Source: Limisphaerales bacterium (GTDB taxonomy: Bacteria > Verrucomicrobiota > Verrucomicrobiia > Limisphaerales > PALSA-1396). Taken from it: DNA of 37,892 nt. The stretch's first letter is position 1, and every line of letters begins with the position of its first letter. The DNA is taken from NCBI GenBank assembly GCA_003140275.1, contig PLJQ01000364.1, positions 6,518-44,409 on the forward strand. The letters run 5' to 3'. Shown piece by piece: positions 27,001-33,000 of this stretch. The position numbers are program-made.

Positions 27001-30000
27001 GGGCAAGAAAGACCGGATGATCCCGATTGGCTCGCGGGCGCTGGCGTGGATTGATAAATACGTCATCGAGGCCCGCCCGACGCTCGTGCGCGAGCCGGAC
27101 GACGGCACACTGTTCCTGTCCAATCTCAACGAGGCGTTCACGCCCAACCGCCTCACGCAACTGGTGCGCGAGTACGTGGACGCGGCGCAGCTTGGCAAAC
27201 GCGGCGCGTGCCACTTGTTCCGGCACACGATGGCCACGCTCATGCTGGAGAACGGAGCCGACATCCGGTTCATCCAGCAGATGCTCGGACACGCCGAGTT
27301 GAGCACAACACAGATTTACACGCAGGTCAGCATCCGCAAGTTGAAGGAAATCCATTCGCTCACGCATCCGGCCAGGCTGGAAAAGGTCCTTGCGGACGGC
27401 CACCAGCCCGCGCCCAATGCGCCTGACGGCGCGACCGCTCCAATGACCAGCACCAACGGCGAGGCGCAGAACCAAATGCTTTTGGGCTTCACGGTGCAGG
27501 CCCGCGAGCAGGAAGCCGCCGCCCTGCATTCCCTTTTAGCCGCCGAACCCGACAACGACAGTGAGTGACTTCCGGCCCGGCCTCTGGTAATCTTCGAGCC
27601 GCTTGAACGCGGCTAAAAAAATAATCCTGCTCCTGTGGCTGCTCATCGCGGCGAGCCTGGGGAACGCATCGGCGCTCACGCCCGGCGCGAGCGAAAACCG
27701 CGTCTGGCAAAAATCTTTTGAAACGCTGGAAACGCGCCAGGCCGAACCGCTGCAAACCCTTGGCGGGCATCAGGAAAATGGAAGTGCGGGCTATGATTAT
27801 GCGGTGGACTCACTCCTTGCCGCAGATACAGGAGCGATTCGTTGGGGGCCGTTAAATGGCGGGCCACTCAATGACGCAGTCACAAGTACTTTCCGAGGCG
27901 GGTCATACACGGAATCAGTGTTGAGTGGGGAAACCACACTCTATCGTTCGTATGGCGGGACTGCTGGAGAACTTGGCTCGTATTGGACGCGGACTCCTCC
28001 TGCCGGGCCGCTTCAAGCCACGATGGACAGCGCACTGAATCCGGCTTGGGGCAATACGGCGCAGAACGTGTCCACGATTAGAGTTCCGTCAGGAACGACA
28101 ATCTACGAGGGCTTTGCCGCTCCGCAGGGTGGACTGCTTGGCGGAGGCAGCCAAGTGTACATTCCGAAAGTGAATCCCAACTGGCTTGTTCACCCGTAAA
28201 CTCAAATGAACTTCACAAACACTATTCAACGTTGGTTCAAGGACGAATGGGGCGGAAGCCTGCTTTTACCCGATGGCTGGTACGGACGTCCGTACGACAA
28301 CCAGCACGCGCTCACGTCTGTTGAAGAGTCTGGCGAAACGTTGACTATCGTTCTTGACCGAAAACTGACGCTTCATTTTGAGGGTTTGAAATCAGTCAAA
28401 GCCCAAAAGCGTGAACTGGCTTTTGGGCCATTTGAAAAGCTCCGCTTCGATTGGGAAAGCTTTGGCGCTGATGGAAAACGCGGCACCAAGGAATATCAGG
28501 CCGGAGAGGTAAAAATTCTGACCGGCCCATGATGAAGCGACACGCGAAACCAACTCAGTTTCTACTGCGGCTGTTTCTAGTCGCTACGATCATTTTTCTA
28601 TCCAGCGCCTCAATCTCTCGCCTTTGGGCAGTAAATTTGCCGTTCAGCACCTTCACTTATGACGGGCTGAGTGAAGCAACAGTTGCCTACGACAATAGCG
28701 AAGAGTCCGCCGCTGGTTATGACGCTGCTTCCGTGCTCACCACAGGCGAAAAGGACGACGGAACGACGGGAGGTCGTGTTTCCTTTGCTCGATTCGCTGA
28801 ATTTCTTGCCGCAGAGAGTGTACCGTCTGCTTTGAACCCGGCGGAGATCAATTTCTCTCAACGAACGGTGAGCGCAAATGTTCAACAGTACACCGCAGAT
28901 ATGGCGAACGGGAACTGGAATTGGTCTAGGTCAGGTCCCTTGCGGGTTATGCAACAAGACGGCCAGTGGGTGTCATATGACAATCGACGCCTGATGGCTG
29001 CGCAAAATGCCGGAGTTAATTCCGTGCCAGTCCAAGTCGTTCAACCAACTGCTGTCGGCCCAAATGGGATGACTTGGGGAGATGCCTTTAATGCGCGGTT
29101 TAATCACCCGTGGAATGTCCAATCCGGTGGCCCGGTTCCGCCCACAGGGCTTAGCTCTCAACCAACGATATTTATTAGGGGAGGAGGCAATTGATTTTAG
29201 AACACACTATGAAAACAACTCAGCAAATGTGGGAAGACAAACTGTGGCCTATTCGAAATGGTCTTTACTTTGCTGATGGCACTGTCGTCCTGTTGAGCAT
29301 CTTGATGCCTTGGGAAACTGCGAACAAAGCGGTTTCCATTAAGATTTCCAAGACCGTCACGCTAGAGGAGGTCGAAGAATTTGGAAAGAATGAAACCACT
29401 CGCATTGGGTCGAATAATGAACAGTCTTACCCCGACCTAAATCTGCGCGTATTATCAGGCGAGGCCTCGCATGGTTCAGAAGGATTTGTTGCTGTCACTC
29501 AGATAACAACAGGGCATCTTGTATGGCTCGCATATTTTGATTGCTCGAATCCTTTTGAGAAAGTGTCGTTGGTAAACGGTATCGTTACGGCCATTTCCAA
29601 CCTCGGCCATGCTTGGCACTTGCCTTTGGCAGAACCTGCGACGTTGACGGTCGTTGTAAATGAACAATGAATCAGTGGAGGAAAAACTTGGTACGCTTTG
29701 GACTGCTATGGCTCATTTGTCCTCTTTTGGGCAACATGTTCGCAGTGGCGGTCCCGGCGGTAGGTTCAGCTTCTGCCAAGTTGCTGTTGGTGTCTCAACA
29801 GGTGGGCGAATTAAAGGGCATTGACTACGATGTCCTGAATTTTTTCGCGGTCTTACCGCCCGCTCTTTCTCTTGGCGGTGAAGCGAACTTTGCTGGTGCC
29901 GGTACTACTTTCACAACCACCGAGGCCGGGTTGGCCGGGGCGGAAGCGCAAAATGTAATTCGAGTGGAATTCGCCGCTGCCGAAGCGGAAGTTACTCTGC

Positions 30001-33000
30001 CATACAGACAGGGCGTAAATTACAGCTTCACCACGTTCAATGAGTCGCTTGGGGCTGCGCCTGCACGTAGTGAAGGTATTCTTGCCGCTATTAGTGAACC
30101 CACAAAGGAGGCAAACTACATCTATCGCGGCCTAGCCCAAGGCGAGGACATCGCCAACGGCTTGGTTGCTCGACTGCCCAACGCGGGAAACGACGCGATA
30201 AGCCATGTTGTGGGACGGGAGGCCAGCCAATGGATTTCGACCACCAAGAGCGAAACGATCGCACTGGAGAAATACGGCGAAAACGGGGTCGTCCGCATTG
30301 ACCTGAACGGGGTCTCCAGTCCTGTCTTGGACGTGTCTGGCGGATTTCCAGGCAAGCCTGGTATGATCTCGAATTGGGCGATCAAGGACCAGGAAGTTTT
30401 GATTCAGAACTTCGTTCCCCCACAAGCAATCACTCGAATACGGTAACACTATGAGCGAACAAATTCAGAATTGGATTCAGTCACTCGAAGCGGAATGGGC
30501 AAAGCCAGACGGCTTCCTGGGGAAAGCAAGGGAGGGTGTTTTCGACCCTAGGCAAGGTGCGAGCTTTGTCAGCCAGCTCGAAAACATCCAGCCGTCGCAG
30601 AACGCTCCAATTGACCGTCGTCTTGTCTCGCTGATTTGGTATATCCCCATGTTCTTGGATTGGCAGAAGAGGCGAGTCATCGACAAAGGCGGAGACGCTT
30701 TGGCGTTTGAACAGTTAGTCAATCGCGTTAGGGCAATTGTTGAAGAAATCTTGGGTGTTCCATGAGAAACCAACGTCTATGACAATGGAGGTTGGCTCAC
30801 GGCGCGTTCTTTGGGCGTGGCTTGTAGTTAGAGGAAGACGTGCATGGCGCATTTCCTCATACGGGCGGTTTCTCGCTCGGAAACAAGTGACAACAAGCAA
30901 AATGGAAATTAAACAAAAACTCTGCGAAGAATCGGTATTTGTTGCGAACTTACAATAGGAGATAAGCCTGAGCGCCCCAGAAGAAACAGTCCCCGCGCAG
31001 TCTGTTTTAACTGCCGCAATCGAGTTCAAAATAAGCTAAACACTTCTGATAATATGAAACATCTTCGCCAAGGGATAATCTGTCTCCTGTTTTCGTGCGT
31101 TGTCCCACTACAGGCGCAACTCACCGTGACCGTTTCGCCGCCGAAAATTGTCGCGCAAAAGGCAGTAGTGCCATTGGCAATGAAGAACAACTTTGCTGAC
31201 ACGATTGAATCAGCCAGGGCGGTTGTGTTCTTGCTTGATGAACACGGCAAGATGGTCAATCAAATGACACGTTGGGTTATCGGCGGAAGCAACGACAAAC
31301 CCGGCCTGCCAGCAGGCGCGACCAATGCCTTTTACTTTGTCATCACGGCTGACAAGCCGTTCACGACAACCAACCTCACGACGAAGGTCACTTTTACCCG
31401 CGTGGTGTTGGCGGGCGGCAAGCTGGCCAATGTTTCAAAAGACGTGCAGGTAACGCAGAAGTGAATTTCTTCGGCTATTACAATGGACTCGCGCCGCTCT
31501 TTGCGCTTGGTCAATGGACGAAACGGCCAGTCGAGGCAACATGCGCTTGGTGTCGCGAGCCAATTCTGCGAAGCGATAACGGAGTTGATTTCGACAACGG
31601 GAGCTATGAACACATCGAATGTTTCATTCACTCAGTCGTTGGTTCAGTTGCTCATCAGGAAAAATGTTGTCTCTGTTACGGCGGGCCGATTGACTGCGAA
31701 GAAGATTGCCGAGCGACAAGACGAGAGAACGCGAAGGCGGCTTTTCAATGTTGGCAAAAATGGGGAACGGCCGCCGCCGAATCAATAAATCACTTCCAAT
31801 TTGAGCGGCATTTAGACATTAGAAGCCGCCGCAAATGACAGCCGTAACCCAATAGAAATTGAGCAAACCTTCCATGAGACAGAAAGGTTTTTTAGAAAAT
31901 TCCATTCGTTGCGAATACATGGCTCAAACGTGATTTACAATTGTTTTGAAATTAGCAAATTTGTCTTTACCAGTGGACAACGTGGAATTTGTTTTGGAAG
32001 ACCATCGAAAATCTGACGCGGTCGGGTTGGCGGCAGTGTAAAAGCAACAGCACTTGGTTAAAGTAAATCTGCGGATCATGCCAAAGCTTCACATAAAACG
32101 GTTTTATTACCGCAGTGGTCAAATCCACACGGAAATGAGGGCAATGGGTGGGCGATTTCATGGCCTCTATCGCACCTGGCATCGCAACGGCAAGCTCGCG
32201 GAGGAATTACGTTATCGCCACGGGCTGTTGCACGGAGTGAGCCGGGAATGGGATGAAAACGGTCGTTTGCTTGGCTCGTTCACGATGGTTCACGGCACCG
32301 GCATCCAGCGTTACTGGCATGACAATGGCCGAATGCAATTTGAAATCACTTCCCGCAACGGCAAATTTCACGGGCGGAACCGGAGTTGGCTGCGCGATGG
32401 CACCTTGATTAAGGAAAACTACCTCATTGAAAATCGGGACGTGACGCGCGCCGCATATCTGAAGGTCGCCCGAAAAAACCCCGACGAGCCGCAATATGAA
32501 GGCGAACGAGCAGGTCGGGTGTTTCGCAAGGGTGACGCCTTGGAGCGAAAGATAATCAATTTGTTCGCGCAAGCCGTTTTGGAAAAATCCGGTCATGCCG
32601 AGGCCAGATCATGGCTGAAGGCTGAAACGCATCCGAAATCCCGTTCACTAGCAAAATTCCACACCGCAAAAGCGGCCTTGAAATTTGTGGAGGAACTTTA
32701 CGCGATGGGCGCGGGTGCGGTCATCGTCTTTGCGATTTCCATCGGCAAAGGCAAAAAACTTTTTGCCGACGCGCTGTTGGTTCAGTTGCCTGGCTCAAAA
32801 TCAAAACGTGCCGCCTTGAGAAACATCTGCCGGGAGTTTTGCGCCAAGCGCGGTGGTGCAGCCTTGCCGGAAAAAGAAATCGGCGAAACGCATTTGTATA
32901 TGATGCTGGCCTGATAAAGCGTGGTTTCATGCCGCCGTGACCAACGGGCGGAAATGACACGGCTGCCTGCGCTCACTTCGCTCCGGCCAGCCTTCCGTCA

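Follow-up and report, generated by a model that had tools for sequence, protein, structure and literature searches.

We analysed a 37,892-nucleotide (nt) stretch of a Limisphaerales bacterium contig (PLJQ01000364.1; Verrucomicrobiota), hereafter called the window, which contains a large rhs toxin gene and, downstream of it, three orphan toxin genes with putative immunity genes (T1 to T3 and I1 to I3). Between them stands a unit coding, among others, for a primase and a tyrosine recombinase. In each toxin gene the C-terminal toxin domain, or tip, is joined to an upstream delivery part at a short junction, and it is this junction that the unit appears to use as its integration site. Coordinates are collected in Table 1; L numbers denote contigs and loci, P numbers proteins.

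The rhs gene codes for a signal-peptide-like N-terminus, a DUF6531 domain (Pfam, 2.1e-14), RHS repeats (RHS_repeat, 1.4e-21), the core end and a C-terminal region (CT). The core end reads ...GGDPVNFFDPSGR (to ~nt 19779), and its PxxxxDPxGL motif is present in translation as a DPxGR variant, ...GGDPVNFFDPSGRF (aa 2707-2721). In the CT, the PT-TG pre-toxin domain (PF14449) scores 26.5 bits on the CT fragment against a cut-off of 23.5, and 22.9 bits, slightly under the cut-off, on the full-length protein; an AlphaFold2 (AF2) model has helices at CT residues 14-29, 37-48 and 61-76. The closest relatives of this rhs are found in Verrucomicrobiota metagenome-assembled genomes (MAGs), at 45-48% identity.

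L-A-A marks the point where leader or linker meets tip in each of the window's four toxin genes: the junctions read GVLAA-TTG-AAEGGAYS in rhs, SLLAADTGAIRW in T1, EFLAAESVPS in T2 and GILAAISEPTKEANY in T3. At the DNA level the conserved unit is a 9-nt core, GCC GCA GAG/T, placed at 20257 (rhs), 27819 (T1) and 28808 (T2). The whole window contains 6 such cores where 0.87 are expected, and a pattern search restricts CTTGCCGCWRWK to the T1, T2 and T3 junctions. Eight nucleotides, GCCGCAGA, are identical at 20257-20264 and 27819-27826. With both core copies included, these positions delimit a unit of 7570 nt (20257-27826) with a period of 7562 nt, in the order nuclease tip, immunity gene, iteron-like repeats, helix-turn-helix (HTH) regulator, 131-aa protein, primase, XerC-like recombinase and signal-peptide leader.

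We collected contigs by the exact 193-aa or 108-aa immunity proteins, all of the sequences coming from metagenome assemblies or MAGs. The contigs of a first class (L026/L036, L038, L040, L042, L044) show the window arrangement at 100% identity. In the second (L027/L039, L037, L029, L031), the integrase is followed by a 188-aa gene, the 193-aa gene and the HTH-primase part once again, the 188-aa gene being the T1 leader fused to the nuclease tip. Positions 1-17217 of L027 match window 10610-27826 and positions 17210-20582 match window 20257-23629, at 100% and with an 8-nt overlap; L029 matches window 25552-27826 and then 20257-25678, its contig ends overlapping by 127 nt. The unit 20257-27826 thus exists with joined ends, in tandem or as a circle. 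Altogether, at least five assemblies, drawn from JGI, ENA and Logan, contain it with joined ends (L001, L027/L039, L029, L031, L037); in L027, L039, L037, L029 and L031 the ends overlap by 8 nt at 100% identity. Short-read assemblers can mis-join at repeats, and in data made up of metagenome assemblies such contigs, as well as the repeat described below, might be chimeras formed at short repeats. We regard this as very improbable: the window arrangement recurs at 100% in the independent assemblies of the first class, the joined form is not confined to a single source, and an overlap of 8 nt is far under any assembler k-mer size.

Each tip exchange documented in related contigs breaks exactly at the core, in rhs, T1 and T2. 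In L001, window 27164-27826 (the integrase end and the T1 leader) is matched at 86%, followed by 20257-20636 at 99.2%: a nuclease tip 99.2% identical to that of rhs, but placed on a T1-type leader and followed by the start of the immunity gene. In L021-L023, a different Rhs of 2001 aa bears the T1 tip of the window, then I1, then a T2-type leader; the match of L021 to window 27819-28718 (89%) begins at the core. Finally, the homology of L025 to the window stops at 28816, the last base of the T2 core, with another tip beyond. An earlier sequence-only reading of the window had rightly located the tip-exchange junction of rhs in the CT, past both the DPxGR core end and PT-TG, but had put the exchange within a 243-nt block shared with T3; the breakpoints found lie at GCC GCA GAG, at 20257, 9 nt past that block.

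Genomes differ in their core variant, yet within each of them both sides carry the same one, as seen in L046 and L004, where an Rhs lies upstream of the element and its junction can be compared with that of the leader. The window has GCCGCAGA and L046 has GCCGCAAAG (GCC GCA AAG on both sides), while the two sides of L004 read GCC GCA GAG AGT G and GCC CCC GAG AGT G. Matched variants in each genome are the pattern expected of attachment-site pairs in site-specific recombination. The leader, in turn, keeps its linkage to the integrase while the tip varies: in L045 (integrase 90%, leader 80%) a different tip and immunity gene come after it, in L046 (74% and 48%) and L004 (integrase 68%) a related leader stands ahead of other tips, and L001 provides a further case. 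By this linkage, the T1 leader is to be assigned to the element and not to the T1 tip. The sequence-only reading had placed an integrative element between the immunity gene and T1; its ends correspond instead to the cores at 20257, in rhs, and at 27819, in T1, so that the nuclease tip and its immunity gene would be cargo of the element and the T1 leader the element's own.

The HTH-primase-recombinase backbone was found at 72 loci (L045-L116) in many phyla, often in tandem and commonly between an rhs tip/immunity pair and an orphan. On the Thermoanaerobaculia contig JAUIJL010000005.1 (L061 and L057 merged, 5660-34006), an Rhs gene is followed by at least four units, A, A, B, B. The Rhs protein of 2000 aa reads ...KVPRG|tipA; an immunity gene, the backbone and a leader ...VPRG|tipA follow, and the A unit is repeated. 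In the B units the tip and immunity gene resemble T2 and I2 of the window, and the last leader ends ...VPRG|IPEASY-stop. All boundaries fall at GTCCCA, in frame, and the site formed by the joined ends is an inverted repeat of 10-6-10 geometry whose arms match perfectly (10/10), CTGTTCCCCT-GTCCCA-AGGGGAACAG, as in Xer-type sites. In loci that contain an Rhs, the integrase is often followed by a leader that is a piece of the Rhs core end, with the canonical DPxG[LR] as junction in these cases: the fragment measures ~190 nt in L105 and 2.4 kb in L055 (95.6% identity), and is short in Ralstonia solanacearum Po82, whose megaplasmid shows the same synteny (L125, 145602-172598). Direct repeats of pre-junction rhs sequence around tip, immunity gene and backbone are thus the usual footprint of such elements. 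The family would range over Verrucomicrobiota, Acidobacteriota including Thermoanaerobaculia, 'Multivoradales' and, probably, Ralstonia megaplasmids. We think it rather probable that across phyla its members use the in-frame Rhs delivery/tip junction as attachment site, serial insertions and not only homologous displacement building the orphan arrays.

These comparisons bear on another view of the joined ends, in which the element, inserted as an ordinary island behind the immunity gene and ahead of T1, takes no part in tip exchange, and the end-to-end junction is a tandem duplication produced at 8-nt microhomology by slippage or unequal exchange. Such an identity suffices for rare RecA-independent duplications, homologous recombination would then alter the copy number and explain the one-copy and two-copy variants, and no empty site was found. 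We consider this scenario improbable, as the same junction occurs in the diverged lineage L001 (integrase and leader 86%, tip 99%), the linkage of leader and integrase persists across 68-90% identity despite different tips, and the core variants are common to both sides within each genome. Moreover, a perfect Xer-type site lies exactly at each array boundary of Thermoanaerobaculia, and only ~250 nt separate the integrase stop codon from the core.

We now propose, with a probability of about 65%, that the unit 20257-27826 is a replicating integrative element that inserts at toxin junctions, and that the orphan array and the T3 copy of the block result from such insertions. The small toxin gene of the element would hold the attachment site, in frame where leader and tip meet, and the recombinase would direct insertion of the element at this same junction in a resident toxin gene. 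In this way the Rhs shell would gain the tip and immunity gene of the element, while the displaced resident tip, here T1, would gain the leader; repeated insertions would build the orphan array. T3, with its block copy, would be the product of an older insertion whose leader was a paralogue of the rhs pre-toxin segment, the block being the leader left behind. Later gene conversion would have homogenised 185 nt, and the T3 core would have since decayed. The block may still be usable as a RecA substrate, in which case a crossover would fuse rhs to the T3 tip and delete everything between.

Several observations weigh against this proposal. An unoccupied site, that is this rhs joined directly to the T1 tip, occurs in no contig, L021 containing a different Rhs. 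The two-copy contigs may be assembler paths round a cycle, and a tandem is indistinguishable in them from a free circle. The core motif is clade-specific, being limited to the closest clade of integrases: of 76 integrase copies in other clades, only that of L046 had it downstream. The exact shared core was not found in Ralstonia Po82. In the joined site of the window, CTCACTCCTT-GCCGCA-GAGGGGGGAG, the geometry is 10-6-10, but arms matching at 7/10 positions are not significant alone. T2 and T3 stand without an element backbone upstream, and either its loss or a mobilisation in trans must be assumed. Finally, the recombination, replication, signal-peptide, toxicity and immunity functions are all inferred.

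Other candidates for the attachment site were considered as well. The 13-nt direct repeat GAGGTTGGCTCAC (22027-22039 and 30788-30800), with ~0.1 occurrences expected by chance, was superseded as att pair by the 8-nt core; no counterpart was found in L004, and the repeat is probably a coincidence. Scans for tRNA genes and Rfam families found no conventional att target.

Table 1. Features of the rhs locus and of the adjoining unit and orphan array, in window coordinates.
Feature	Position	Strand	Evidence
Main rhs gene, 2995 aa	11620..20607	+	ORF (open reading frame) list, translation, Pfam
PT-TG pre-toxin domain, rhs aa 2747-2792, model positions 4-49 of 68	19858..19995	+	PF14449
rhs repeat copy: probable PT-TG tail (AVLPPALSLG...), unique ~65-aa linker, LAA-TTG-AAEGG	19993..20274	+	
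Older degenerate junction, CTT GCA GCT ACT ACT GGA (L-A-A-T-T-G)	20239..20256	+	
Intact junction core, GCC GCA GAG (A-A-E), left end of the unit (attL)	20257..20265	+	
Nuclease tip, PD-(D/E)xK fold, interpreted as element cargo	20257..20607	+	Homologues, fold search
Putative immunity gene (193 aa), predicted cognate of the nuclease tip	20610..21191	+	Linkage
Non-coding region with iteron-like short repeats (CAACG units; 45-nt repeats at 21750-21906), families D6 and D10	21300..22000	.	
HTH (Cro/CI-type) regulator	22366..22791	-	Pfam HTH_3 1.6e-16; syntenic in related elements
131-aa protein	22822..23217	+	tblastn, 57-62% in L004 and L056
Primase-type replication protein, 1045 aa, CHC2 zinc finger and Toprim	23225..26362	+	Pfam; NCBIfam dnaG domain
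XerC-subfamily tyrosine recombinase, 386 aa	26408..27568	+	Pfam Phage_integrase 2e-39
T1 leader, interpreted as right end of the element; attR core GCCGCAGA at 27819-27826	27603..27826	+	
T1 tip (weakly TNT-like) and I1 (108 aa), interpreted as tip displaced from rhs	27827..28532	+	
T2 and I2: T2 leader, core GCC GCA GAG at 28808-28816, tip; I2 at 29191-29670	28529..29670	+	
T3, 259 aa	29667..30446	+	ORF list, translation
T3 N-terminal head, signal-peptide-like (by eye), then ...KGIDYDVLNFF	29667..29846	+	
T3 repeat copy (block 29847-30089), degenerate core at end	29835..30116	+	
T3 ART-fold tip (ADP-ribosyltransferase; to 30446) and I3 (30451-30765)	30090..30765	+	

The block on which the sequence-only reading had centred joins the 3' part of rhs to T3. 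Exact ungapped alignment of 20005-20247 with 29847-30089 gives 243 columns, no gap and 21 mismatches, 14 of them in the first 58 nt and 7 in the last 185 nt, precisely as had been counted by hand. The two copies lie in frame 0 of their respective ORFs (rhs aa 2796-2876, T3 aa 61-141) and are direct repeats with an offset of 9842 nt, again in agreement with that reading, which had given ~9.8 kb. Their blastn E-value is 6e-100, and the repeat family that they form (D5, 19993-20269 versus 29835-30111, 88%) is the sole long-range repeat found in the window by a repeat search. Nineteen codons differ between the copies, 13 synonymously and 6 nonsynonymously.

The homology exceeds the block and spans 19993-20274 as a mosaic of three parts. 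The left part (19993-20062) is 74.3% identical, the middle (20063-20247) 96.2% and the right (20248-20274) 59.3%, against a same-offset background with a mean of 25.7% and a maximum of 55.6%; the middle differs from each flank with Fisher p = 1e-6 and 3e-7. The longest perfect run measures 54 nt (20151-20204). The right part passes through the 9-nt core at 20257, where T3 has a degenerate version, CCC ACA AAG GAG GCA for GCC GCA GAG GGG GGA in rhs, with one base changed per codon; the resulting ...KEANYIYRGL corresponds to the AAEGNY[VI]YRGL start of several ART-tip homologues. Just before it, the older degenerate rhs junction is homologous, codon by codon, to CTT GCC GCT ATT AGT GAA of T3. 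The copies are the in-frame delivery-side flank of the toxin-tip junction: probable PT-TG end, ~65-aa linker and short junction. Their mosaic divergence indicates that they have already exchanged sequence, in a conversion patch of 185 nt. We infer an old paralogy over the entire junction, a recent gene-conversion patch in its centre and a decayed core in T3.

Could the block itself be the site of tip switching? The sequence-only reading saw in it a working RecA homology between rhs and T3 that encodes a reusable entry module. The geometry of a single crossover is sound, the repeats being direct and in frame, and a perfect run of 54 nt should permit RecA-dependent exchange, given the minimal homology needed. 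Past gene conversion, to which the far greater likeness of the middle 185 nt points, and the preponderance of synonymous codon differences (13/19) speak for the model too. It also has a precedent in Salmonella, whose main rhs gene and orphan recombined through 522 bp at 95% (PMC3967940), following a duplication that preserved immunity. Yet all documented exchanges break at the core and none in the block, and no rhs::T3 recombinant was detected in the contigs with I1 or I3, a small sample that includes a strain 98.5% identical to the window. These same contigs hold no gene-conversion variant either. A crossover would moreover remove the gene giving immunity to a tip still in use among siblings, a problem already noted for Salmonella (PMC3967940). 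Since the module also has no homologue outside the two genes, and is thus not reused across toxins, and since its model confidence is below 50 and PT-TG is reported before a disordered linker (PMC13483458), we hold this model to be unlikely.

The block begins with AVLPPALSLG..., continues with a ~65-aa stretch rich in Ala, Gly, Thr and Glu, and ends with ...ARSEGVLAA. It starts where the last of the three predicted PT-TG helices ends; no more than its first ~16 aa could match the unaligned PT-TG model positions 50-68, and T3 alone has no PT-TG match. Homologues of both tips begin to align just past the block, which ends at T3 aa 141 and CT aa 156: their starts cluster at T3 aa 145-156 and CT aa 155-172. 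Many of them are short complete proteins without the block, which is therefore part of neither catalytic domain, as the sequence-only reading had supposed.

The same reading took the module for a conserved, reusable part of the CT, possibly an entry or translocation domain. Two copies in one population are what we found, and protein, genome and metagenome searches returned no other. Word-indexed searches of 5.8 billion protein clusters with full T3 and rhs CT yielded no module-bearing protein except T3 itself. An exhaustive phmmer search with the 91-aa module against 1.84 billion representative proteins gave only two weak matches, to repetitive Ig/cadherin-like proteins, which we judged compositional and rejected as homologues. 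An exact 47-nt module pattern had no match in genomes, nor had back-translated patterns in genomes and metagenomes; a 44-nt degenerate pattern found none in metagenomes either, a weak negative as that collection is also without the window's own sequence. AlphaFold confidence (predicted local distance difference test, pLDDT) stays below 50 for the module in both models, which are uninformative there because the module has no alignment depth. The proposed entry or translocation role has no support. In other PT-TG toxins a short, low-complexity stretch lies between PT-TG tail and tip (P0003; the Rhs of L021), and a recent survey describes PT-TG as preceding a disordered linker (PMC13483458). The block is best described as a PT-TG tail followed by an unusually long, lineage-specific linker.

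Past the block, the rhs and T3 tips have no mutual similarity, and both are modelled with confidence (pLDDT ~85-98, versus <50 for the block). The rhs tip has ~99 homologues in Rhs, CdiA-like, HINT and small-leader contexts. In a fold search its model matches the PD-(D/E)xK nucleases AF1548, Card1, NucS/EndoMS and BamHI, and residues D202, E211 and K213 (D, E-x-K) are conserved. The T3 tip, with 16 tip-only homologues, matches the ADP-ribosyltransferases EcPltA (E = 5e-4) and CARDS toxin, and conserves R154, S191-T193 and E243 (Arg, S-T-T, Q-E). Model matches and conserved residues thus agree with the earlier description of a nuclease-like and an R-S-E ART-like tip. The T1 tip matches Pfam TNT with an E-value of 0.13 only; apart from this, Pfam and NCBIfam gave no match for the tips and immunity proteins. 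The 193-aa gene comes after the nuclease tip in all 12 contigs, and I3 comes after T3 in every contig examined. In P0093 and P0115 the end of the nuclease tip is fused to a 193-aa immunity-type protein, probably through assembly frameshifts or read-throughs; the linkage of tip and immunity gene accordingly holds in diverged relatives.

Orphans T1 to T3 start with TTG or ATG, and their basic-hydrophobic-AxA N-termini look by eye like signal peptides. Overlaps of 4 nt of the ATGA type connect I1 to T2 (28529/28532), T2 to I2 (29191/29194) and I2 to T3 (29667/29670), where the T3 ATG overlaps the I2 stop codon; the I1/T2-leader overlap is retained in L021. From the sequence, this suggests translational coupling along the array. 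The T2 leader (28529-28816) consists of a signal peptide, three YDG motifs and FAEFLAA. It belongs to a family without Pfam model whose layout is a signal-peptide-like start, 2-4 YDG/YD motifs and F-x-x-F-A-E-F-L-A-A-[E/D]; small metagenomic proteins combine this leader with five or more unrelated tips (P0022-P0036, P0044, P0083, P0109, P0111, P0118-P0125). A profile search with the leader alignment returned only 8 matches, as the profile is short and the database huge. T3, in turn, has the layout expected for a displaced tip: signal-peptide head, leader, junction, tip.

As for the element backbone, the predicted recombinase scores 433.8 bits on NCBIfam NF002331 (cut-off 371). Homologues of the primase occur on Ralstonia and Paraburkholderia megaplasmids; none was found in IMG/VR viral contigs. 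The 131-aa protein matches no Pfam or NCBIfam family. The non-coding region at 21300-22000, whose repeats resemble iterons or operator sites, may be the origin or a regulatory region of the element; the long minus-strand ORFs overlapping it are spurious.

Like the rhs/orphan locus of Salmonella Typhimurium (Koskiniemi et al. 2014, PMC3967940) and the orphans of rhs and contact-dependent growth inhibition (CDI) loci (Poole et al. 2011, PMC3150448), the window has a downstream toxin/immunity pair and an in-frame direct repeat common to that pair and the 3' part of the main gene; there as well, a crossover would put an orphan tip on the delivery protein, and arrays of pairs trail the main gene. 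In particular, T3 and I3 resemble classical orphan modules in their position downstream of the main gene, their common strand and the own immunity gene. In classical orphans the homology is the core upstream of DPxGL or VENN, and start signals are mostly missing (PMC3150448). Here, by contrast, T1 to T3 have start codons and signal-peptide-like leaders, and the homology comes after the core end and PT-TG: T3 has none to the core that includes or abuts DPxGL, only that of 19993-20274, ~210 nt past the DPSGR codons. Exchanges, too, break at the 9-nt core and not within the homology.

Site-specific integrative elements with Xer-like or integron-type tyrosine recombinases, among them integrative and conjugative or mobilizable elements (ICE/IME), offer a second comparison: shared features are a XerC-subfamily recombinase adjacent to its site, a short core repeated identically at the two ends, a form with joined ends and tandem arrays of related units. 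Elements are known to accrete in tandem at one att site (cis-mobilizable elements, CIME). Unlike in ICE/IME, the site lies in frame within a toxin gene, at the delivery/tip boundary, and an insertion therefore yields two new functional-looking fusion genes rather than one gene restored or disrupted. In shufflons, such as that of R64 with Rci and PilV, a tyrosine recombinase swaps C-terminal protein segments in frame by inversion among resident segments. The likeness lies in recombination at a short in-frame site that alters the C-terminal part of a surface or delivery protein; the difference is that the incoming segment would here be brought by a mobile unit, together with an immunity gene, a primase and a recombinase.

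A further parallel is the bipartite CdiA-CT, which Willett et al. in 2015 reportedly divided into an N-terminal cytoplasm-entry domain and a C-terminal toxin. Entry domains of this kind are common to many toxins in many strains. The rhs CT likewise combines a non-catalytic N-terminal part with an exchangeable catalytic one, but its module exists in two copies only and without a confident fold. The architecture of PT-TG, linker and variable toxin is itself known (Zhang et al. 2012, PMC3482391; PMC13483458), from which the window departs by an unusually long linker (~65 aa) that is specific to its lineage and has a second copy in an orphan. In bee-gut Snodgrassella and Gilliamella, integrase-like genes recur beside rhs and might aid the capture of Rhs sequences, the mechanism being left open (Steele et al. 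2017, PMC5727410); the element ends, core site and in-frame position mapped here go beyond that case. A survey from 2025 on the Rhs toxins of plant pathogens, Ralstonia among them, does not mention integrases or primases, and in the open-access literature we found no description of such elements integrating in frame into rhs.

The usual account of tip acquisition and orphan arrays invokes homologous recombination at the conserved core and leaves the incoming DNA unspecified. Our comparisons point to a vehicle, a mobile unit with tip, immunity gene, replication protein and recombinase, and to a site, a 9-nt (elsewhere 6-nt) in-frame core in the resident delivery protein. For the window this changes the reading: the current rhs tip would be element cargo and T1 the displaced tip. 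If true, it would explain why integrases recur by rhs loci, why some orphans carry signal-peptide leaders and why tip boundaries are sharp. It would also offer a testable system, made of a ~26-bp site and one recombinase, for in-frame swapping of protein C-termini.

Some minor observations concern the leaders. That of T1 has a signal-peptide-like N-terminus, an ENRVW motif, GYD and ...SLLAA. Leaders placed after the recombinase share a motif behind the signal peptide, ENRVW in the window and ETRLWTF or AETRVWGFE elsewhere, in very distant hosts (window 27603-27700, L046 ~11100-11280, L058 ~4150-4300 and the Thermoanaerobaculia leaders). L045 (3279-4397) combines a T1-type leader with a third tip (…ITHGGGEAPEEY…) and a 183-aa partner, and its junction LLAE-TAATTGG echoes the LAATTG of the window rhs.

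Downstream of the array (33387-37892), the window contains a minus-strand ClpB-like AAA+ gene, a TrbC-like gene and, cut off by the end of the window, a large TraG/VirB4-like gene, all named after precomputed Pfam marks on L036; a conjugative element may adjoin or include the rhs locus. At the opposite side (75-6960), two large genes contain many tandem ~180-nt repeats (families D1-D4) encoding ...SDGA.P.AGLILSGNTLYGTT.GGGSSG.GTVF... and probably code for a secreted repeat protein unrelated to tip exchange.

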